Source: an uncultured Comamonadaceae bacterium
Lineage (GTDB): Bacteria > Bacteroidota > Bacteroidia > Flavobacteriales_D > Sanyastnellaceae
Length of the DNA stretch: 64,000 nt
Direction: 5' to 3'
Assembly (NCBI GenBank): GCA_964555295.1
Contig: CAZKRL010000003.1
Coordinates: 9,487 to 73,486 of the forward strand
The position numbers were made by a program, and so were the translations under genes. The notes below the pieces were generated by a model, which saw only the letters and a list, made by a program, of their open reading frames with translations, searched no databases and had not been told where the DNA came from. Of this stretch, positions 1,245 to 37,169 are shown one piece after another; within the stretch, counting starts at the first letter, position 1; every line of letters starts with the position of its first letter.

Positions 1245-3656
1245 CTATCCGCTACACATTTCACAAGAATCAGGATTATCCAGTGAGCATGCAATGGCGG
1301 CTTGCGCGGTCATCTGATCCGTTGTGACGGGTGTAATATCTGCGGCAATGGCAGCAGATTGTGTTTCTGTGGCAAGCTCAGGTTTTTCCACTTTATATTT
1401 CTGATCAACCGTGAACTTGATTGCATCCGTAGCCGCCTTGGTGCGCAGGTAGTACATGCCCGTTTTCAATCCACGCTCCCAAGCGTAAAAATGCATGGAA
1501 GATAGCTTACCAAAATTCGGGCTTTCCATAAATACATTGAGCGACTGACTTTGACAGATGAATGCTCCGCGATCTGCCGCCATTTCAATGATGGCTTTCT
1601 GCGACAACTCCCAAGCTGTCTTATACAACGCCCGCAGATTCTCTGGAATCTCATTGATGCGCTGCACCGAACCATTCGCTGCAATGAGTTTGTTTTTCAA
1701 ATCATCATTCCATAGACCAAGACTTACAAGGTCTTTCAATAGATGTTTATTAACGATAATGTATTCTCCGGCCAATACTCGGCGGGTATATATATTGCTC
1801 GTATAGGGCTCAAAACACTCGTTATTACCTAGGATTTGCGCAGTGCTTGCCGTTGGCATTGGTGCCAGTAGCAGCGAGTTTCGCATACCGTGCGTTTTGA
1901 TTTCATCTTTCAACACATCCCACTCCCAGCGACTCGATGGTGCAATTTCCCACATGTCGAATTGCAAAATGCCTTTGCTCGCTGGAGATCCCGCAAAGGT
2001 TTCGTAGGTGCCATCCCGCTTTGCCAGGTCTTTAGACGCTGTGCATGCAGCATAGTAAATCGTTTCAAATACATCCTTGTTGAGCTGGCGCGCTTCCGCA
2101 CTATCGAATGGAAAGCGCATCAGAATAAAGGCGTCTGCCAAACCCTGAACACCAATGCCGATGGGTCGGTGGCGCATATTGCTACGCTTTGTCTCAGGCA
2201 CCGGATAGTAGTTACCATCAATGATTTTGTTCAAGTTGATGGTAAGCTGATATGCTACCTCGAAAAGTTTATTATGATCAAACTCTCCATCTTTTACAAA
2301 CTTGGGTAGTGCAATAGAACCGAGGTTACAAACCGCAATCTCGTCGGCTGAAGTATACTCAATGATTTCGGTGCACAGATTCGAACTCTTGATTGTGCCC
2401 AAATTCTGTTGATTACTCTTGCTATTTGCGGCATCCTTGTAAAGCATGTACGGAGTGCCAGTTTCAATCTGTGATTCCAGAATTTTGAACCAGAGATCCT
2501 GGGCTTTGATGGTTTGGCGGCCTTTGCCTTCTGCCTCGTAACGCTCGTAAAGGGCTTCAAATTCTGCACCCCAGCAATCGCTGAGTCCGGGGCATTCATT
2601 AGGGCACATTAACGTCCACTCACCGTCTGCTTTCACCCGCTTCATAAACAAATCAGGAATCCATAAAGCGTAGAATAAATCTCTGGCCCTGGCTTCTTCC
2701 TTGCCATGATTTTTCTTGAGATCGAGGAAATCATATACATCCGCGTGCCATGGTTCGAGATAAATAGCGAAAGAACCTTTGCGCTTGCCTCCTCCCTGAT
2801 CCACATATCGAGCCGTATCATTGAACACCTTCAACATTGGAACAATTCCATTGCTGGTGCCATTTGTGCCCTTGATGTAAGAACCCTTTGCGCGAACATT
2901 ATGAATGCTAAGACCAATACCGCCTGCGCTCTGAGAAATCATTGCGGTTTGTTTCAGTGTGTTGTAGATGCCTTCGATACTATCCGACTGCATCTGCAAC
3001 AAAAAGCATGAACTCATCTGTGGTTTGGGAGTTCCAGCATTGAATAAAGTTGGTGTTGCATGGGTAAACCATCCTTCGCTGAGCATATTGTAGGTCTTGA
3101 TAACCTCCGCAATATCCTCCTTGTGTATTCCGACAGCGACGCGCATAAACAATTGTTGCGGACGCTCAGCCACTTTTCCATCAAGCTTCAATAGATAGGA
3201 TCGTTCGAGGGTTTTAAATCCGAAGTAATCGAAATGAAAATCCCTGTCATAGATAATCGTACTATCCAGAATTGGCGCATTCTCAATAATCACCTTATAC
3301 ACGTCTTCAGCTATCAGACCTGCATTCGCTCCGGTTTTCGGATCAATGTAATAATACAAATCCGCCATCACCTGACTAAACGCCTTCTTGGTATTCTTGT
3401 GTAGATTACTCACAGCGATGCGCGATGCAAGTAGCGCATAATCGGGATGCGTGGTGGTATTGGTGGCCGCGATTTCAGCCGCTAGATTATCAAGCTCACT
3501 GGTAGTAACTCCGTCGTAAACCCCCTCGATAACCTTCATGGCTATCTTCACCGAATCCACTATCGGGCTCAATCCATAGCACAGCTTACCAATTCTTGCC
3601 GTAATCTTATCAAACTTAACGGTCTCTTTGTGTCCGTCTCTCTTTACTACAAACAT
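1245..3656 (-). CDS. nrdA: Ribonucleoside-diphosphate reductase, class Ia large subunit
   Basis: 803 aa. It has an N-terminal ATP-cone ([20 protein letters not shown]), the catalytic SSNLCTEI motif and a C-terminal CEMCSG redox-shuttle cysteine pair. It lies directly downstream of nrdB. Confidence 0.95.
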
Positions 3657-3914
3657 GCAACTTCAGTTTTAAAATTTTACTTCCTGCAAATCATTTGATC
3701 ACGGCTGATCTGCATTGCCGTTTTGGTTAGGTTCTCCGAGGGTCAAAATTTTACCGACGAAGTGGTCTGCAATTACGACCATCGAATCACCATTTGTCAA
3801 AGCGGAAAAGTCTATGTTTTGAAAAACTCATCCACAATTTTCCACATCTAAAAAAAATGAAAACTATTGCTTGACAGATGGCAAAAAAAAATTATACGAA
3901 CCGTCGATTGTTCG

Positions 3915-30852: not shown

Positions 30853-31896
30853 TTACAGCCATTTCTTTCTCCGAAAAATCAGCAGCATAATCAGAACAAG
30901 CGCGAGCATAGATGCCAATACGATGGGATATGCCATGTGATATTTCAGCTCGGGCATGTATTCGAAATTCATCCCATAAACGCCAACCACAAATGTGAGG
31001 GGTGCGAAAATGGTAGTAATAATGGTAAGCACCTTCATCACCTGATTCATCTTCATACTCTGATGGCTGTGATATAGCTCCAACAAATTGGCCACCATTT
31101 CTCGGTACATGCTCAAGTTCTCAGACTCGTGAATAATATGGTCGTAGAGATCTCGATAGTATTTCGACATATCGTGATCCATCTCGCGCGAAATTGCATT
31201 CACCGCTTCCTTCAATGGATCGACGCTGCGCTTAAAGTCGATAAGCTCTTTCCTAATACCCAGAATACTTTTGAGAATATGCTCGTTGGGTTTACGCATT
31301 ACCATGGTCTCAAGCTGCTGAATGCGATCAGCGAGCTTATCACTCACTACGATATAATTATCAATCACGTGATCCATGATTAGATACGCCAGGTAGTAAC
31401 CATTTTTGCTTCTCACCCTGCCCTTGGATGTTTGGATTCTGTCGCGGATTTCATCAAAGTAATCCCCCGGCCTTTCCTGAAACATCACCACTGAATCTTC
31501 ACGGATAACCAAGGATAATTGCTCCAACTCCAGAGGCCTGCCATATCCTCGCCACTCCATCATTTTCAGCGAAACAAAAAAAAAGTCGCCAAAAAACTCC
31601 ACCTTAGGTCGGGCGGCACTATTCATGATATCCTCCAAAATGAGTATATGAATATTGAGGCTTTGTCCGACATGCTCAATCACACCAGCGTCGTGAATGC
31701 CATCCACATTGATCCAGCTTACCTTATCCTTTTGGCAGAGCAATTTCAAATCCTGAGGCGAACAATTCGCATGAGTAGTGCAGTCATCCTGATGGTATGA
31801 AATGACGTCGATGTGAACCTCATCCTGTCGATCAGGCCCAATGTGTACAAGTGCACCCGGGCCCTTGCCTGCTTTTCCCGAACGGTCTGCGTTCAT
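30853..31896 (-). CDS. corA: Mg2+/Co2+ transporter CorA
   Basis: 347 aa with the YGMNF signature between two C-terminal TM helices. Confidence 0.9.
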   Translation of the reverse strand: MNADRSGKAGKGPGALVHIGPDRQDEVHIDVISYHQDDCTTHANCSPQDLKLLCQKDKVSWINVDGIHDAGVIEHVGQSLNIHILILEDIMNSAARPKVEFFGDFFFVSLKMMEWRGYGRPLELEQLSLVIREDSVVMFQERPGDYFDEIRDRIQTSKGRVRSKNGYYLAYLIMDHVIDNYIVVSDKLADRIQQLETMVMRKPNEHILKSILGIRKELIDFKRSVDPLKEAVNAISREMDHDMSKYYRDLYDHIIHESENLSMYREMVANLLELYHSHQSMKMNQVMKVLTIITTIFAPLTFVVGVYGMNFEYMPELKYHMAYPIVLASMLALVLIMLLIFRRKKWL

Positions 31897-32012: not shown

Positions 32013-32345
32013 TCAACGAATCAACGGCGATGAACGTGAGGTCAGCGCCATTTGCCAGGGGAGAATATTGACATCATGAATATGCAATGTTTCGTTTCCG
32101 GTATAAACGACTTCAAGACTGGCTTCAGATCGCAGTGCTTTCCAATAAGTGAGATGTTTCCAATAGTCAGAAGTAGCGGTGCTTCCCACTCTGATTTCGA
32201 TGGCTTTTACATGCCCGTCGAGCTCCTCAAGGAGGTCAATTTCACGACTGTTTTTTTCTCGCCAGAAATAAAACTGAGTAAAGCCACCCGTATGAAGGTT
32301 GTGTTTCCATTTATCTGATACAATCATGTTTTCAAAGAGGGCCAC
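32013..32345 (-). pseudogene. C-terminal remnant of a DUF4143-type AAA ATPase
   Basis: The ...ALFENMIVSDKWKH...FYFWREKNSREIDLL...AIEIRVGS... pattern matches the DUF4143 C-terminus. The sequence just upstream (to about 32450) continues the similarity only through a stop codon and a frame change. Confidence 0.6.
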
Positions 32346-32506
32346 TTTATTGCGGAGAGTTCAGAATTTTACTTTTTATGCTGCTGCTGATGTGGGAGTC
32401 TCATATGTGCTGCAGATACTTTTTCGGGTATTTACCAATGTCAAATTGAAGAAGGAGAATGCCTTCTAGAGTTTCTTCCCCGGCTGCGCTGCACTAAGCC
32501 GGCGCG

Positions 32507-32590
32507 ATGGAGAGTAGTGAAATAGTGAAAAGGTGAAGTGGTGAAATAGAAACTGCAGTGAATCACTCTCTCACCATTTCACCACGTCAC
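32507..32590. repeat. GTGAA-rich imperfect-palindrome repeat, copy A
   Basis: It is about 84% identical by eye over 76 nt to copy B. GTGAA words fall at 8-nt spacing (32517, 32525, 32533, 32541), and the complement TTCAC/GTCAC words lie on the right arm. It ends on the fic stop codon (32587-32589). Confidence 0.75.
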
Positions 32591-33645
32591 TTTTTTCCAA
32601 ACGACAAAGTGTACCAAGCTGTTCTTCCAGCCCCGCGTTGTTGGATAAATCCACGCTCCGATAAATTCCGAAAGTGTTGCTTCAACGTATTGCGATTAAT
32701 GCCGGTTAAAGTTGCGTATTCACCAATAGAAATGCGGCCATGGTGCTTGAGATGCTCGAGAATGCCCAACGAAATCGCCGGTAACAAAAGCGCAAGCGAT
32801 TGCTCTTGCTCAACCTTTTTTCGTAGCAAGTCCTTTTGTGCTTTCAAACTTCTTAGAAAATACACAAGCCATGGCTGCCAGTCGGGCGATTCTGTTCGGA
32901 TTGTTTCCTGGGTTTTACGAAGTGACAGATAATAACTTTCCTTGGATTGTTCAATGACGCTCTCCAACGAACTGTAGGGAACATAGTCATATCCGGCTTG
33001 CAATAAAATGAGTGTGCTCAATGCACGACTAAGCCGCCCGTTGCCATCTTGAAACGGATGGATTTCGAGAAACACCACTGTAAAAATTGCTGTGACAATA
33101 AGTGGATGTATATATTTCCTTGTGGTTTCTTCTTGTATCCATTGCACAAGATCATGCATGAGAAACGGGGTGTCGAACGGGGAGGCGGTTTGAAAAACAA
33201 TACCCAGCTGATTCCCATTTTCATCGAATGCCGCAACTGAGTTGGAGGTTGTTTTATAATTGCCACGATGCCATGCATCCTTTTCGCTATAGATCAATAA
33301 ATCCCTGTGGAGCTGTCGAATGTAACTTTCACTCAGGGGAATGTCGGGCCATTCATTGAAAATGGTCTCCATAACCTTGGAATACCCCGCTACCTCTTGC
33401 TCGTCGCGTGTGGAAAACGTTTGGATTTCGATGCGGCCGAGTAGGCGCTCAACTTCTTTATCTGATAATTTGCTTCCTTCGATACGTGTGGATGAACCGA
33501 TGCTTTCAATTGTCGCTATTTTCCGGAGCGCACGCAGACGCTCTGGCTCGAGCGTTCCCAGCGCGCGCCAGGCACCCTTGAACTCATCGATTTCACTGAT
33601 GAGGCGCAGAATGTCAGAAGTAATGACAAGGCTATCCGTCTTCAT
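32587..33645 (-). CDS. fic: Fic-family protein (class II, N-terminal inhibitory helix, C-terminal wHTH)
   Basis: The Fic motif HPFQDGNGRLSR is at 33025-33060. The inhibitory motif STRIEG ([ST]xxxE[GN]) is at 33475-33492. I chose the ATG at 33645; the track ORF starts at a TTG at 33669. Confidence 0.9.
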   Translation of the reverse strand: MKTDSLVITSDILRLISEIDEFKGAWRALGTLEPERLRALRKIATIESIGSSTRIEGSKLSDKEVERLLGRIEIQTFSTRDEQEVAGYSKVMETIFNEWPDIPLSESYIRQLHRDLLIYSEKDAWHRGNYKTTSNSVAAFDENGNQLGIVFQTASPFDTPFLMHDLVQWIQEETTRKYIHPLIVTAIFTVVFLEIHPFQDGNGRLSRALSTLILLQAGYDYVPYSSLESVIEQSKESYYLSLRKTQETIRTESPDWQPWLVYFLRSLKAQKDLLRKKVEQEQSLALLLPAISLGILEHLKHHGRISIGEYATLTGINRNTLKQHFRNLSERGFIQQRGAGRTAWYTLSFGKK

Positions 33646-33706
33646 AACGACACCCAAATATACACCCAATTACACCCGATTAGGATTGTAGTGAATAGGA
33701 TTGTAG
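33646..33706 (-). promoter_or_regulatory. fic upstream region with direct repeats and a TAnnTTTG box
   Basis: On the minus strand, GGGTGT occurs three times and CTACAATCCTA twice. TATATTTG (33655-33662) lies 10-17 nt before the ATG. Confidence 0.4.
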
Positions 33707-33781
33707 GATTTAGGGAATGGCGAAGTCGCTCCTTTTGTCAACTGAGCGGGTGCCCGGCCCATGTCATTATTTTGCCAAGCC

Positions 33782-33872
33782 ATGGAGAGTTGTGAATTAG
33801 TGAAATGGTGAATTACTGAAACGGAAGCTGTAGTGAAGACTCTCTCACCATTTCACGATTTCACCACTTCAC
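33782..33872. repeat. GTGAA-rich imperfect-palindrome repeat, copy B
   Basis: This is the homologue of copy A and carries one extra 8-nt GATTTCAC unit. A 12-bp perfect stem, GTGAAATGGTGA/TCACCATTTCAC (33800-33811 / 33845-33856), is extendable to about 20 bp. The repeat contains the stop codon (33869-33871) of the truncated ATPase fragment. Confidence 0.75.
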
Positions 33873-34267
33873 CCTACACTCAGCCGCAACGTCGCACCCA
33901 GCATAGCAATTCGTTCCGCCAGGCTCTGACCGATGGATTGTTGCAAGAGAAAATTGTTTGAACCTGTCAATATAAATAGGCCTGTATCATTAGAATTGTC
34001 GAGAATTTCTTGCAGGTAGGAAAACAATTCAGGGGCTTGTTGAATTTCATCGAGAATGGCGCCCTTGGGAAACTGCGCTAGAAATCCGCGCGGATCTGTT
34101 TGTGCCATGAGCCGAGTGTCAGGGTTCTCCAAGCTGGCATATTGCTTGCCCGGAAACACTTGTTTTGCCAGGGTAGTTTTGCCGGATTGGCGCGGTCCTG
34201 TAATGGCGACACTTTTGAATTGAGCAGCTAGCTTTTTAAGTCGCTCAGTAGTCTGTCTCTCAATCAT
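33869..34267 (-). pseudogene. N-terminal fragment of a DUF4143-type AAA ATPase (AAA_14-like)
   Basis: 132 codons with Walker A (ITGPRQSGKTTLAKQ) and Walker B-like (AILDEIQ). It is truncated where family members normally continue, with the stop lying inside repeat B. Confidence 0.65.
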
Positions 34268-34282
34268 TTAGCGAAAATATGA

Positions 34283-34311
34283 ACTTTTCAGGAATCTGAT
34301 TCCCGAAAAGT
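34283..34311 (-). terminator. Hairpin downstream of hemD
   Basis: A 13-bp inverted repeat, ACTTTTCAGGAAT/ATTCCCGAAAAGT (one mismatch, 3-nt loop), is followed on the minus strand by a T-rich stretch. Confidence 0.45.
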
Positions 34312-34376
34312 TTGATATTCGGCTAAAGGGCGGTAATAAAATGAATAGAACTGCAAAGGAGCGGGCAAGTTGATAA

Positions 34377-35036
34377 TCAAATAATCGCGTAAATGCTCCT
34401 TGCCCAAACCAAAGAATCTCCATGAGGCAAATAATGAATATTGGAAATATCCCCGCCTCTGAGAACTTCCGCGGTGGGTTCACCCAGAACAAAAAAAACT
34501 GCTTGATGATGGATACTTGTGTCATCCATAATCACTCGCGCATTCTCGGGGCTGAGAACAACATATACGTCATGAGTTCCAATGATATCATGCGTTCTTA
34601 CGGACTCATAACATACCAAATCAATCACTTGAGAAGCAGGGAAAAATTTCTGTACTGTGCGTAAACTATTGTTGCCACATGGAAAGAGAATCTTGCTAGC
34701 CCCTGCCAATCTTGCAAAATCACGAGCCGTATTTTGAGTGTCGTAATCTGCCCCCGCAAAGCTCACGGGCGCATATTTAGAAAGTTCTTCGGCGGTAGCG
34801 CGACCTATTGCGGCATACGAATAATTTCCTACAGTGGCTTTCTCGAAAAAAAAACGTACCGCGTTTCTACTCGAAAAAAAAATCCATTCCGGGGAATCTG
34901 TTGGCCAAACGAAATTCAATGACTCATAGCGCAACAATGGCTTTGCCACAACCTCAAATCCCTGTTGATTGAGCAATTCAATAAATGGCAAAACCAACTC
35001 GCGCTTGCGCGTAATAAAAACGCTTTTCCTATGCAT
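34377..35036 (-). CDS. hemD: Uroporphyrinogen-III synthase
   Basis: I chose the ATG at 35036 (MHRKSVFITRKR...), which overlaps the hemC stop by 8 nt (ATGCATAG). It sits in the hemA-hemC-hemD order and is about 220 aa, typical of HemD. Confidence 0.75.
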   Translation of the reverse strand: MHRKSVFITRKRELVLPFIELLNQQGFEVVAKPLLRYESLNFVWPTDSPEWIFFSSRNAVRFFFEKATVGNYSYAAIGRATAEELSKYAPVSFAGADYDTQNTARDFARLAGASKILFPCGNNSLRTVQKFFPASQVIDLVCYESVRTHDIIGTHDVYVVLSPENARVIMDDTSIHHQAVFFVLGEPTAEVLRGGDISNIHYLPHGDSLVWARSIYAII

Positions 35037-35916
35037 GAATGCGCTGCATAATGAGGTCAGGCAGTGAGCCAACATGAGATGCTCTGCAAGTGAAGAAAGT
35101 TGATGACCCGCTGGGAGGCGCGTAAAAAACCCTGGCAACGTATTCGCCTTCAGTTCCATATACATACACCCCGAGCGGCAAATGACATCCGCCTCCCAAA
35201 AGCTGAAGAACCCTCCGTTCAGCGTCGGTGCAAATTTGAGTTTGCCGGTGATTCAATTGTGCCACCAAAGGAATCATTGCGTCATTCTCGCGCATTTGAA
35301 TGGCCAAGGCACCTTGAGCGGGCGCTGGAACAAATTCATCAAATGGCATTGTAACGGCTGATAGACCCGAGAGATCAGCATTTATACGTTTCACTCCGGC
35401 AAGAGCAATAACGATAGCATCCAAACCTGATCGCAGTTTATCTATTCGGGTAGGAACATTTCCTCTGAGATCTACCAATTCCAAATCAGGTCGGTAATAT
35501 CTCAACATGGCCTTTCGTCGTAGTGATGAAGTGCCAACGCGTGCGCCAGTTTTGACATGCATCAATCCCTGACCGCTCACAAGACTCTGCGTAGAGAGTA
35601 ATAAGTCATTGGCCTGCTCGCGCTCTGTGATGGCTGCAAGGAGAAGACCGTGCGGCTGAGCAGTAGCCAAATCTTTGTAAGAATGTACCGCGATATCAAT
35701 CTCATTGGTAAGCAATGCTTCCTCAATTTCCTTGGTAAAAAAACCCTTGCCCTCTAATTTGTCGAGACTCAAATGTTGCACCCTGTCACCTTGGGTTGAA
35801 ATCACTTTGATCTCTGTTTCGAGACCAGCATATTTCAATTGAGTAGAGACCCATCGGGCTTGCCAAAGGGCGAGTTCGCTGCCTCGTGAACCGATAATGT
35901 ATTTTCTATTTGTCAG
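35029..35916 (-). CDS. hemC: Hydroxymethylbilane synthase (porphobilinogen deaminase); start codon uncertain
   Basis: The conserved N-terminus YIIGSRGSELALWQA lies upstream of the listed TTG (35838), in an open frame with no ATG, GTG or TTG. The CTG at 35914-35916 is my best guess for the start. Confidence 0.8.
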   Translation of the reverse strand: MTNRKYIIGSRGSELALWQARWVSTQLKYAGLETEIKVISTQGDRVQHLSLDKLEGKGFFTKEIEEALLTNEIDIAVHSYKDLATAQPHGLLLAAITEREQANDLLLSTQSLVSGQGLMHVKTGARVGTSSLRRKAMLRYYRPDLELVDLRGNVPTRIDKLRSGLDAIVIALAGVKRINADLSGLSAVTMPFDEFVPAPAQGALAIQMRENDAMIPLVAQLNHRQTQICTDAERRVLQLLGGGCHLPLGVYVYGTEGEYVARVFYAPPSGSSTFFTCRASHVGSLPDLIMQRIHA

Positions 35917-35927
35917 AAGAGAGGGGG

Positions 35928-37169
35928 CTAATTGGCATCAATGTTAGTGAGCAAAACTTCCTTTGCCAACTTCATCGGAATAGATATATATTTTCTCTCC
36001 ATGTAATCCAGCATGCGCAACATCAGCTCACGAGACTCTTCATTCAGACTATTCATCTCTTTTGAGAAGATCTGTTCAACGGCCTGCTTACGAATTTCCT
36101 TGATAGATTCAGGTATAGCACTCATAGCAATCTCTACTTTCCTGACTTTCAAATTATCCTGTAATTCTCTCTCATGCGCTTCGATTATCGGAACACATTG
36201 TTCCATCATATCTCTGCGATGCTGCAGATTTTTTTCAGCCATTTCCTGAATTTCAGAAAGGCGTAGCAATCTCGTGCCGTATTGCTCTTCTATATGCTCG
36301 TCAATATCAGCGGGATTTGCAAGATCTACGAGAAGATCGGGAGCGATACCTTGCAGAACAAATTGATGAAAACGACTTTGAGTAAGAATGAGCTCAGTCG
36401 ATCCAGTGCATGAAATCAGCACGTGCATTTTATTGCGACATGACCAAAATTCTTCCAGCGCAAGGGCAATACCACCAAATTCCTGAGCCAGTGCACTCGC
36501 ACGCTCAGGGGTGCGATTAACGAATGTGAGGTTCGTGAATCCCGCTTCATGAAAGAACTTAACCAGTGATGCAATGACCTCACCCGCGCCGAGAAAAATA
36601 ATATTCTGATGCGCGTTGATTCCTTGCTGAATGAGTCTTTGCCAACATAGCGAACTGATGCTTACTGCGCCCGTGCCCAAGGGAGTTTGCGTGAATACTT
36701 CTTTAGCAGCGCGGATGGCATGAGACACTGCCATACGCAATAGATCTCCCGTAGAGCCGAGTTTGTTGTACTCTTCATATGCCTTTCGAACTTGCCCAGA
36801 AATTTCCCGCTCACCAATAATTTTTGAATCAAGACCGGATGTAAGAAGAAATAAATGCCGCAATGCGTCAGTTCCATTGAAAATTAGTGCGCTCTTGATA
36901 AGGCCATTCAGATCGTGGGCTGACATTTCGGGATATAGGGCTTCCAAAATGCGCGCAGTAAGCCCTGGACAAAGGAAATGTGACAGTGACGAAATGATTT
37001 CAACCCGGTTACAGGTAGCGAGTATCATACACTCCGTCATACCTGTTTTTCTCATTACATCGTATGTGCGGCGAGACTTCACCTCATCGGATAAATGCAG
37101 TTTACCAATTCCCTCAAGCGAGATATTGTGAAAAGAAAAGGATACGATTTTCAGATGATCAGTTACCAT
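35928..37169 (-). CDS. hemA: Glutamyl-tRNA reductase
   Basis: 413 aa with the catalytic TCNRVEI motif and the NADPH-binding motif FLGAGEV. Confidence 0.93.
   Translation of the reverse strand: MVTDHLKIVSFSFHNISLEGIGKLHLSDEVKSRRTYDVMRKTGMTECMILATCNRVEIISSLSHFLCPGLTARILEALYPEMSAHDLNGLIKSALIFNGTDALRHLFLLTSGLDSKIIGEREISGQVRKAYEEYNKLGSTGDLLRMAVSHAIRAAKEVFTQTPLGTGAVSISSLCWQRLIQQGINAHQNIIFLGAGEVIASLVKFFHEAGFTNLTFVNRTPERASALAQEFGGIALALEEFWSCRNKMHVLISCTGSTELILTQSRFHQFVLQGIAPDLLVDLANPADIDEHIEEQYGTRLLRLSEIQEMAEKNLQHRRDMMEQCVPIIEAHERELQDNLKVRKVEIAMSAIPESIKEIRKQAVEQIFSKEMNSLNEESRELMLRMLDYMERKYISIPMKLAKEVLLTNIDAN

Follow-up and report, generated by a model that had tools for sequence, protein, structure and literature searches.

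Class II Fic proteins are defined by an inhibitory motif of the form (S/T)xxxE(G/N), and an antitoxin, AS1, has been reported for the Sofic protein of Escherichia coli (PMC12249575). SoFic and class II Fic AMP-transferases have been reported as a single-gene anti-phage system. A second type of single-gene system, PDC-S01, is a very common, unvalidated 'guilt-by-embedding' defence candidate in which an ATPase is fused to a PD-(D/E)xK-type domain, its validation still pending (PMC12988326). Among short repeats, classical repetitive extragenic palindromic (REP) sequences carry a terminal GTAG or CGTC tag (PMC3733652), and Y1 transposases of subclass 1.2 are low-copy, occur in Bacteroidetes and Cyanobacteria and are without REP-like partners (PMC6006769). 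Here we analyse a locus in which these themes meet. It lies in a stretch of 64,000 nucleotides (nt), hereafter the window, from the 2.8-Mb, 71-contig assembly G000, where a SoFic-like gene stands between two pieces of an ATPase gene. A foreign fragment of 1558 nt, carrying the SoFic-like gene in, has replaced 473 nt of the ATPase gene, and we consider it likely that it entered by illegitimate recombination.

The locus comprises three open reading frames (ORFs) on the minus strand: (i) an ORF of 132 aa (33869-34267) that matches AAA_14 (E 6e-23); (ii) an ORF of 360 aa (32587-33669) that matches Fic (E 2e-15) and, at its C terminus, the winged helix-turn-helix (wHTH) domain HTH_24 (E 2e-7); and (iii) an ORF of 110 aa (32013-32345) that matches only positions 108-158 of the 160 positions of the DUF4143 profile (E 2e-8). 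These Pfam results agree with the original prediction, which had assigned the same ORFs and domains, an AAA_14 piece, a C-terminal DUF4143 piece and an intact Fic protein, from the sequence alone. Searches with both ATPase pieces returned full-length AAA_14/DUF4143 proteins of 381-400 aa, the best of which, P0001, has 389 aa. The N-terminal piece corresponds to residues 1-123 of P0001 and of six allelic variants of the same length (97.6-98.4% identity), and the C-terminal piece, at 32016-32341, to residues 281-389 of the same proteins (96-98%). Both thus map onto one ATPase, as had been proposed, rather than onto different paralogues. The six intact paralogues encoded elsewhere in the genome, only 26-46% identical, were rejected as a source of the fragments. 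Residues 124-280 are missing, and with them two thirds of DUF4143 and the portion of the ATPase distal to Walker B; the loss of a central part had been anticipated correctly, and its size, measured as 157 residues, exceeds the 130-150 that had been estimated. The ATPase gene of G000 is a pseudogene.

The state of the locus before this loss is preserved in near-identical organisms (98-99% nucleotide identity), in which the interval between corA and hemD holds an intact ATPase gene at the same site and not the broken arrangement. In contig L028 (Logan), hemC and hemD are followed by the intact ATPase gene and the next gene; contig L077 (JGI, 30 kb) extends from DUF4290 through hemA, hemC, hemD, the intact ATPase gene, corA and arginine decarboxylase to katG, colinear with the window. 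Positions 1-2067 of L028 align without gaps to window positions 35966-33900 (98.2%), and positions 2541-3891 align to 32341-30991 (98.5%); the alignment with L077 breaks at the same places. Homology therefore ends sharply, without gaps, at 33900 and 32341, and between these points 473 nt of the ATPase gene (157 codons) have been replaced by 1558 nt (33899-32342).

The remnants differ from L028 at only 8 of 368 nt and 3 of 318 nt, respectively, so that the gene was cut rather than eroded, and cut recently. The description of the ATPase as decayed is thus not borne out, and no degenerate remnant was found. The same is true of the roughly 100 nt beside the C-terminal piece that had been thought to retain ATPase similarity across a stop codon and a frame change, a claim that failed in three tests: (i) local alignment of the spacer with the deleted ATPase segment gave a score of 19, below the mean of shuffled sequences (24 ± 4); (ii) a hidden Markov model built from 116 family members gave only negative bit scores against all six frames of 32342-32500; and (iii) 85 nt of the supposed remnant (insert positions 1406-1490) are about 87% identical to the spacer that follows the Fic gene in contigs L047 and L048. 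The likeness of 'PKKY…IKSK' in 32342-32500 to the ATPase is a chance resemblance.

To place the left junction (33899/33900), we aligned the intact allele (L028), the window and donor-type loci (L054, L055) three ways. The junction has a microhomology of 3 nt, GCT, and the truncated ATPase ORF ends in …RIAML-GATLRLSVG followed by a stop codon, where the last nine codons are antitoxin-derived and fused in frame; the donor-type antitoxin protein ends in …ADGLGATLRLSVG. Insert positions 1-55 are 87% identical to L054 3457-3511, which comprise the 3' end of the antitoxin gene and the start of the palindrome. On the left, the insert therefore reaches 27 nt into a donor antitoxin gene, and on the right it ends in a donor spacer, about 160 nt past the second of two palindromes, R1 and R2, that flank the Fic gene. 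The right junction is an ambiguous patch of 9 nt (32334-32342) with three differences from all species-level intact alleles, the window reading VALFENMIV where the intact alleles read RGSLFENMIV. The proposal that a small foreign segment had replaced part of the gene with no recombinase in cis is upheld, whereas that of a precisely bounded cassette is not, its ends lying within the antitoxin gene and the spacer.

The nearest Fic proteins (92-93% identical) come from freshwater metagenomes. On their contigs, the genes form part of small islets of 2-3 kb that vary in content and hold several modules, in the order DUF6364-PIN, Fic, bAvd (L030); Fic, DUF6364-PIN (L047); Gp49-HTH, Fic, DUF6364-PIN (L048); or Fic, Gp49-HTH (L052-L056). 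L047 and L048 are colinear (87%) with insert positions 209-1490, which span the promoter, the Fic gene, R2 and 85 nt of spacer, and L052 is colinear (89%) with positions 193-1337; homology to L030, L047, L048 and L052 begins at positions 193-209. As the housekeeping genes beside these islets are about 82% identical in nucleotides to those of G348 and G342, members of genus g44, which belongs to the same family as the window's genome and is a different genus, the closest known relatives of the fragment (87-89%) are variable Fic/toxin-antitoxin islets of another genus of the same family. The two palindromes are not products of the insertion; they are intergenic elements, common in the donor lineage, that travelled with the fragment. 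In L047 (1575-1700) and L048 (7157-7290), the spacer past the downstream palindrome of the Fic gene has a second inverted repeat, GCCGGCTTAGCGCA … TGCGCTAAGCCCGC, enclosing about 90 nt, of which the window keeps only the first arm (about 32480-32500). The last 68 nt of the insert (32342-32409) contain a degenerate array end (…AATTCTGAACTCTCC).

Other samples hold both forms of the locus. Two contigs on record contain the exact chimeric ORF of 132 aa, and an ENA assembly has a second variant of the same length. Contig L078 (ENA ERZ27275342) aligns without gaps to window positions 38459-33635 (99.2%), through the junction and R1 into the start of the Fic gene, and contig L079 (Logan SRR8942237) is 100% identical through the left junction; since that junction was independently assembled in two other datasets, it is not an artefact of this metagenome-assembled genome (MAG). 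At least seven intact variants of 389 aa occur in other samples. L078 represents a different haplotype: at codon 33917-33919 it keeps the ancestral glycine (SLAGRIAML) seen in all intact alleles, in contrast to the glutamate of G000 (SLAERIAML), and the substitution in G000 therefore arose after the gene had been broken. Both alleles coexist in nature, and we infer that the allele is polymorphic there and that the event was recent.

The Fic gene may start at TTG 33669 (360 aa) or at ATG 33645 (352 aa). Directly upstream of the latter, 33646-33706 (minus strand) contain three copies of GGGTGT and, just before the ATG, a TAnnTTTG-type box, TATATTTG. As this arrangement is kept upstream of a 70%-identical Fic gene in G015 (L007, about 1490-1525), ATG 33645 is the more likely start. 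The box supports the view that the gene has a promoter-like region of its own, and the GGGTGT repeats are possibly an operator bound by the wHTH domain of the Fic protein itself. In the numbering of the 352-aa protein, the catalytic motif HPFQDGNGRLSR conforms to HxFx(D/E)GNGRxxR, with H196, D200, G201, N202, G203, R204 and R207 invariant among 40 homologues. The inhibitory motif S52-T-R-I-E56-G57 (SSTRIEG), which precedes the Fic core on the same polypeptide, is likewise invariant in this set; in the structural model it lies at helix H34-55, and it aligns with SSNRLEG of the Bordetella Fido protein 8uqu, the best sequence match among solved structures. Across the inhibitory-helix region, the protein aligns to FICD as well as to this Fido protein, and HTH_24 spans residues 299-343.

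Furthermore, the SoFic model of PADLOC matches the protein over nearly its full length (E 2e-46), and the AlphaFold2 model, of moderate confidence (mean predicted local distance difference test score 75), gave full-length Foldseek matches to the SoFic structures 3eqx, 3zcn and 3zec (TM 0.59-0.64 over about 355 columns). Motifs, PADLOC and fold thus agree with the class II auto-inhibited architecture that had been proposed, and we infer that the gene encodes a class II auto-inhibited Fic AMP-transferase of the SoFic type. A dN/dS of 0.08-0.09 relative to its relatives indicates purifying selection and is consistent with a functional gene. By homology, the product is probably a stand-alone anti-phage module of the toxin-like or abortive-infection kind. 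Fic genes of the same type occur in other genera of the family in unrelated contexts, at L007 (G015:C11) 1115-2593 and L008 (G011:C45) 609-1736; that of G015 is intact and lies just past a stretch with a tRNA-like-looking translation, and that of G011 is split into three ORFs. Neither of these two loci has octamer arrays of the kind that make up R1 and R2.

The ancestral order was hemA-hemC-hemD, the gene for an AAA_14/DUF4143 ATPase of 389 aa, and corA, and a foreign fragment of 1558 nt replaced codons 124-280 (473 nt) of the ATPase gene. In order, this fragment comprises the last 27 nt of the antitoxin gene with its stop codon, R1, the promoter and the Fic-wHTH gene, R2 and about 160 nt of spacer. 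It probably entered by illegitimate, microhomology-guided recombination that involved neither the palindromes nor a site-specific enzyme, either in one double event or as a larger insertion trimmed by a later deletion. That the insert was not cut at cassette boundaries points to illegitimate recombination, and several observations argue against a site-specific enzyme: the arbitrary ends in the donor sequence, the microhomology limited to GCT, the loss of host DNA, the presence of the repeat at a single locus, and the lack of a Y1 transposase or Ku. Capture of foreign DNA by end joining was considered as well and found no support, as searches of G000 recovered no Ku. The palindromes are passengers in this genome.

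Several points weigh against this reconstruction. A search with the exact CorA protein found no independent contig that spans the right junction. The last 68 nt of the insert matched none of the fetched loci and nothing in two metagenome scans, and, with the Fic gene separated from its nearest relatives by a dS of about 0.5, the true donor is unsampled; the exact Fic protein is recorded only on the contig of this genome. With regard to the cargo, the score against the NCBIfam SoFic equivalog NF046030 was 60.3 bits, far from the cut-off of 550, which is why we call the protein SoFic-like rather than SoFic, and downstream of the Fic gene we found no credible small ORF for an AS1-like antitoxin, only spurious ORFs derived from the array. 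Finally, fragments of 1.5 kb are rarely integrated by double illegitimate recombination, which makes a history of several steps equally possible.

Such a history would have begun with the insertion of a larger island, for example a Fic/toxin-antitoxin islet on an integrative element, most of which was then removed, together with the 473 nt, by deletions. The insert looks as if trimmed from a longer array of modules: it opens midway through what is left of a toxin-antitoxin operon, and the spacer at its other end holds a degenerate third arm of an array. Related islets are 2-3 kb long and have several modules, and deletions with short microhomology are common. Against this, no intermediate allele was found, the three disrupted and at least eight intact contigs or variants showing two states only, and the near absence of additional mutations in the remnants leaves little time for successive events. 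We regard this specific course as improbable; it is a variant of the explanation by illegitimate recombination and does not contradict it.

A different role for the palindromes has to be judged from their structure and distribution. R1 and R2 are direct copies of each other (81-88% identical), and each is an imperfect palindrome of inverted arrays of GGTGAAAT-like units of about 8 nt. A repeat search placed R1 in the direct families D1 and D2 and in the inverted repeats I2, I5 and I7; the z-scores of the DNA folds are -2.35 for R1 and -2.72 for R2. The first G-TGA of R1 is the stop of the chimeric ORF, and that of R2 is the stop of the Fic gene. Further copies of the flanking repeats had been suggested as something to look for genome-wide; both BLAST and a detector of periodic octamers recovered only these two in the 2.8 Mb of G000, and we therefore rejected the repeat as a genome-wide miniature inverted-repeat transposable element or REP in this genome. 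Rfam gave no match for the palindromes.

In a sample of 300 other genomes from across the order, the array pattern was present in just one, G300 of genus g44, with 28 matches. Its relatives G335, G342 and G348 have 85, 31 and 50 matches, respectively, and the congeners G130 and G184 have none. Over all array-rich genomes examined (G300, G335, G342, G348 and G349-G353), the number of matches ranges from 28 to about 650, the latter in a single MAG (G349); controls with the reversed pattern were near zero except in G353. A scan of genome collections (L080-L159) found exact array 24-mers in many Bacteroidota, including freshwater Flavobacteriales, 'Bacteroidales' MAGs, several Hymenobacter species, Chitinophagaceae, Proteiniphilum and many MAGs from lakes, and a few single matches in other phyla; many contigs end in arrays. 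The arrays of G300 are intergenic and typically separate the 3' ends of housekeeping genes that converge on each other. In the islets of freshwater Flavobacteriales, each module (Gp49-HTH, Fic, DUF6364-PIN, bAvd, HTH) is bounded by arrays of GGTGAAAT units; the order of modules varies between contigs, and blocks of homology end at the arrays. Of 11 ORFs that have at least 70 aa and run into an array, 10 stop at the TGA of its first unit, compared with about one third expected for random phase; the count includes homologous modules and corresponds to about 7-8 independent cases. The literature searched, including that on REPs in Hymenobacter, contains no description of this repeat. The octamer-array family is thus widespread but patchy in Bacteroidota, bounds toxin-antitoxin and Fic modules and often supplies the stop codon of the upstream gene.

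A candidate enzyme for the arrays is encoded in G300. This Y1/HUH transposase of 146 aa (L063, G300:C41, 131-565) lies beside smpB, and its stop codon falls within an array (L063 546-589; a second array is found at 756-789). Its motifs, DHVH, WQ and YFRRQTDYH, agree with subclass 1.2 in the scheme of Quentin et al. (PMC6006769). Orthologues (55-75% identity) were found only in G335, G342 and G348, all three array-rich, so that within genus g44 arrays occur in all four genomes with an orthologue and in none of the three without one, in a sample of related, and hence not independent, genomes. The gene is single-copy and, in three genomes, lies beside the same gene for a major facilitator superfamily transporter. 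At two of the four loci an array is adjacent, the gene running into it in G300 and lying about 140 nt from an upstream array in G335; G342 and G348 have none there. The array-rich genomes G349 and G350 lack an orthologue, as does the array-rich Hymenobacter persicinus, and the other genomes have only Y1 proteins of 18-27% identity. We therefore rejected a general association of REP-associated tyrosine transposases (RAYTs) with arrays, which holds in g44 and fails in distant array-rich genomes; the link within this one genus is suggestive. No Y1 transposase was found in G000.

From these data it could be argued that the Fic gene is a mobile cassette, that the octamer palindromes are its recombination sites, either attC-like or resembling the ends of REP or IS200-like elements, and that an enzyme acting in trans inserted it, with the deletion of host DNA as a side effect. 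The modules of donor-type islets are all bounded by arrays at which order changes and homology breaks, the arrays begin at the upstream stop codon in nearly all cases, and the Y1 gene of G300 ends in an array and has orthologues only in array-rich genomes of that genus. Elements of the IS200/IS605 type cut some distance outside their hairpins, which could in principle agree with a left end situated 27 nt before R1. However, that end lies within the antitoxin coding sequence, which is continuous in donor-type loci, the right end lies about 160 nt past R2, and 473 nt of host DNA were lost. Moreover, G000 has neither a Y1 transposase nor a further copy of the element, the repeats contain no RYYYAAC or GTTRRRY core sites, distant array-rich genomes are without a Y1 orthologue, and most arrays of G300 separate housekeeping genes that converge, as REP or terminator elements do. 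We therefore give insertion of the Fic gene as a cassette little chance. Slightly better placed, yet still unlikely, is the broader idea that the arrays are mobility or recombination sites of an undescribed Bacteroidota-wide system that shuffles small modules for defence or of the toxin-antitoxin type, such as Fic, HigBA-like, VapBC-like and bAvd, from genome to genome, possibly by means of subclass-1.2 Y1/HUH enzymes, and from which the Fic gene of the window would be an escaped fragment.

An artefact of metagenome assembly or binning, in the form of a chimeric join, is largely refuted and scarcely credible. The genome does consist of 71 contigs, and in other assemblies contigs are prone to end at these repeats: L078 stops at window 33635, after R1, the upstream region and the first 34 nt of the Fic ORF, and L079 stops where R1 ends (33784). 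However, two independent assemblies span the left junction and R1, one of them as a 99.2%-identical haplotype that reaches the Fic start, both flanks stay colinear with the intact locus, and an overlap of 3 nt could not mislead a k-mer assembler.

The features of the locus and the array-bounded islets are listed in Table 1. As originally described, the surroundings are housekeeping genes: corA flanks the locus at one end, and hemD, hemC and hemA lie at the opposite end. Between the stop codon of hemD and the start of the ATPase gene (34267-34327) lies an imperfect palindrome of 30 nt (73% complementary, 1-nt loop), possibly the hemD terminator; since the region is colinear, it is present in the contigs with the intact allele, too. 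In another genome, an ATPase orthologue of 92% identity (P0005; L029 10001-11203) is located between genes for aldehyde dehydrogenase and GAPDH, and the PDC-S01-type gene therefore occupies different loci in related organisms.

Table 1. Features of the disrupted ATPase locus, its neighbouring genes and array-bounded islets on other contigs (positions are those of the window unless a contig is named)
Feature	Position	Strand	Remarks
Native ATPase, 5' part (codons 1-123)	33900-34267	-	Walker A GPRQSGKT; colinear with intact alleles to base 33900
Insert, first 31 nt	33869-33899	-	3' end of donor HigA-like HTH antitoxin gene and TGA; three-way alignment L028/window/L054, L055
Upstream palindrome R1	33779-33872	-	Inverted arrays of ~8-nt GGTGAAAT-like units
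Fic upstream region	33670-33778	-	33708-33774 unique to this allele; from ~33707 like donor-type loci
Intact Fic gene	32587-33669	-	Pfam Fic and HTH_24
Downstream palindrome R2	32504-32590	-	Second octamer-array copy
Donor spacer	32342-32503	-	32410-32503 ~87% identical to post-Fic spacer in L047, L048
Native ATPase, 3' part (codons 281-389 and stop)	32013-32341	-	DUF4143 end with EIDLL motif; without own start codon in native frame context
hemA	35928-37169	-	Window gene
hemC	35029-35838	-	Window gene
hemD	34377-35165	-	Window gene
corA	30853-31896	-	Window gene, beyond ATPase 3' part
Array-bounded islet	L048 5722-8229		
Array-bounded islet	L052 5670-8035		
Array-bounded islet	L030 90-2617		
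Array-bounded islet	L047 163-1912		

The intact ATPase P0001 matches PADLOC PDC-S01 over its full length (E 2e-95). With this assignment for the ATPase and that of SoFic for the Fic protein, the net effect of the event may be a swap of defence genes, a PDC-S01-type gene being exchanged for a SoFic-like one. If both genes are defensive, the PDC-S01 allele and the SoFic-like allele would form a natural knock-in/knock-out pair whose phage sensitivity could be compared. The locus provides a base-resolved case of transfer between genera without the machinery of a mobile element, with the 'before' and 'after' alleles both present in freshwater populations, and this pair should be useful for studying the turnover of accessory and defence genes in streamlined aquatic Flavobacteriales. 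The octamer-array family, not found in the literature searched, deserves a study of its own.

Compared with described systems, the Fic protein of the window shares with SoFic and class II Fic proteins the catalytic motif HxFx(D/E)GNGRxxR, the N-terminal (S/T)xxxE(G/N) motif and the C-terminal wHTH domain, and differs in being only 17-18% identical to SoFic of Shewanella oneidensis in a structural alignment. P0001 has the domain set of PDC-S01, AAA_14 and DUF4143, whereas the gene of G000, with residues 124-280 gone, is destroyed. Similar to integron cassettes and their attC sites, as in clusters of attC sites lacking integron-integrases (CALINs), the modules of the donor lineage bear promoters or are toxin-antitoxin pairs, occur in variable order and are parted by palindromes that start at the stop codon. 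In contrast to cassettes, some islet modules, such as bAvd, are in opposite orientation, and octamer palindromes also sit between housekeeping genes. We rejected an attC reading because the insert junctions do not coincide with the palindromes and because R1, R2 and the copies in L030 contain neither the R'' (RYYYAAC) nor the R' (GTTRRRY) core site, their ends being GGTGAAAT-type and ATTTCACC-type units. Gene calling showed no recombinase in the 6 kb on either side of the islets, and no search aimed specifically at IntI was made.

The arrays resemble the REP/REPIN-RAYT system (REPINs being hairpin-forming REP doublets) in that they are short intergenic palindromes, often located between convergent genes, in tens to hundreds of copies, and in that a single-copy, syntenic Y1 gene co-occurs with them in one genus and abuts an array. 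They differ in consisting of tandem 8-nt units in variable number rather than a fixed hairpin of 20-40 nt, and their units are based on GTGA, with no GTAG or CGTC tag. The motifs of the Y1 protein fit a subclass without a described REP-like partner (PMC6006769), and in G000, where the two copies are passengers, the repeat is not multi-copy.

The event itself is closest to illegitimate, microhomology-based integration, with which it shares the absence of extended homology, the 3-nt microhomology on the left, the loss of recipient DNA and the absence of a mobile-element signature. Homology-facilitated illegitimate recombination classically has one homologous anchor, and short-patch double illegitimate recombination concerns much shorter patches; here, by contrast, both ends of the insert appear to be non-homologous. 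It is a well-documented and mechanistically ordinary gene swap, and the octamer-array family is the more unusual element of the locus.

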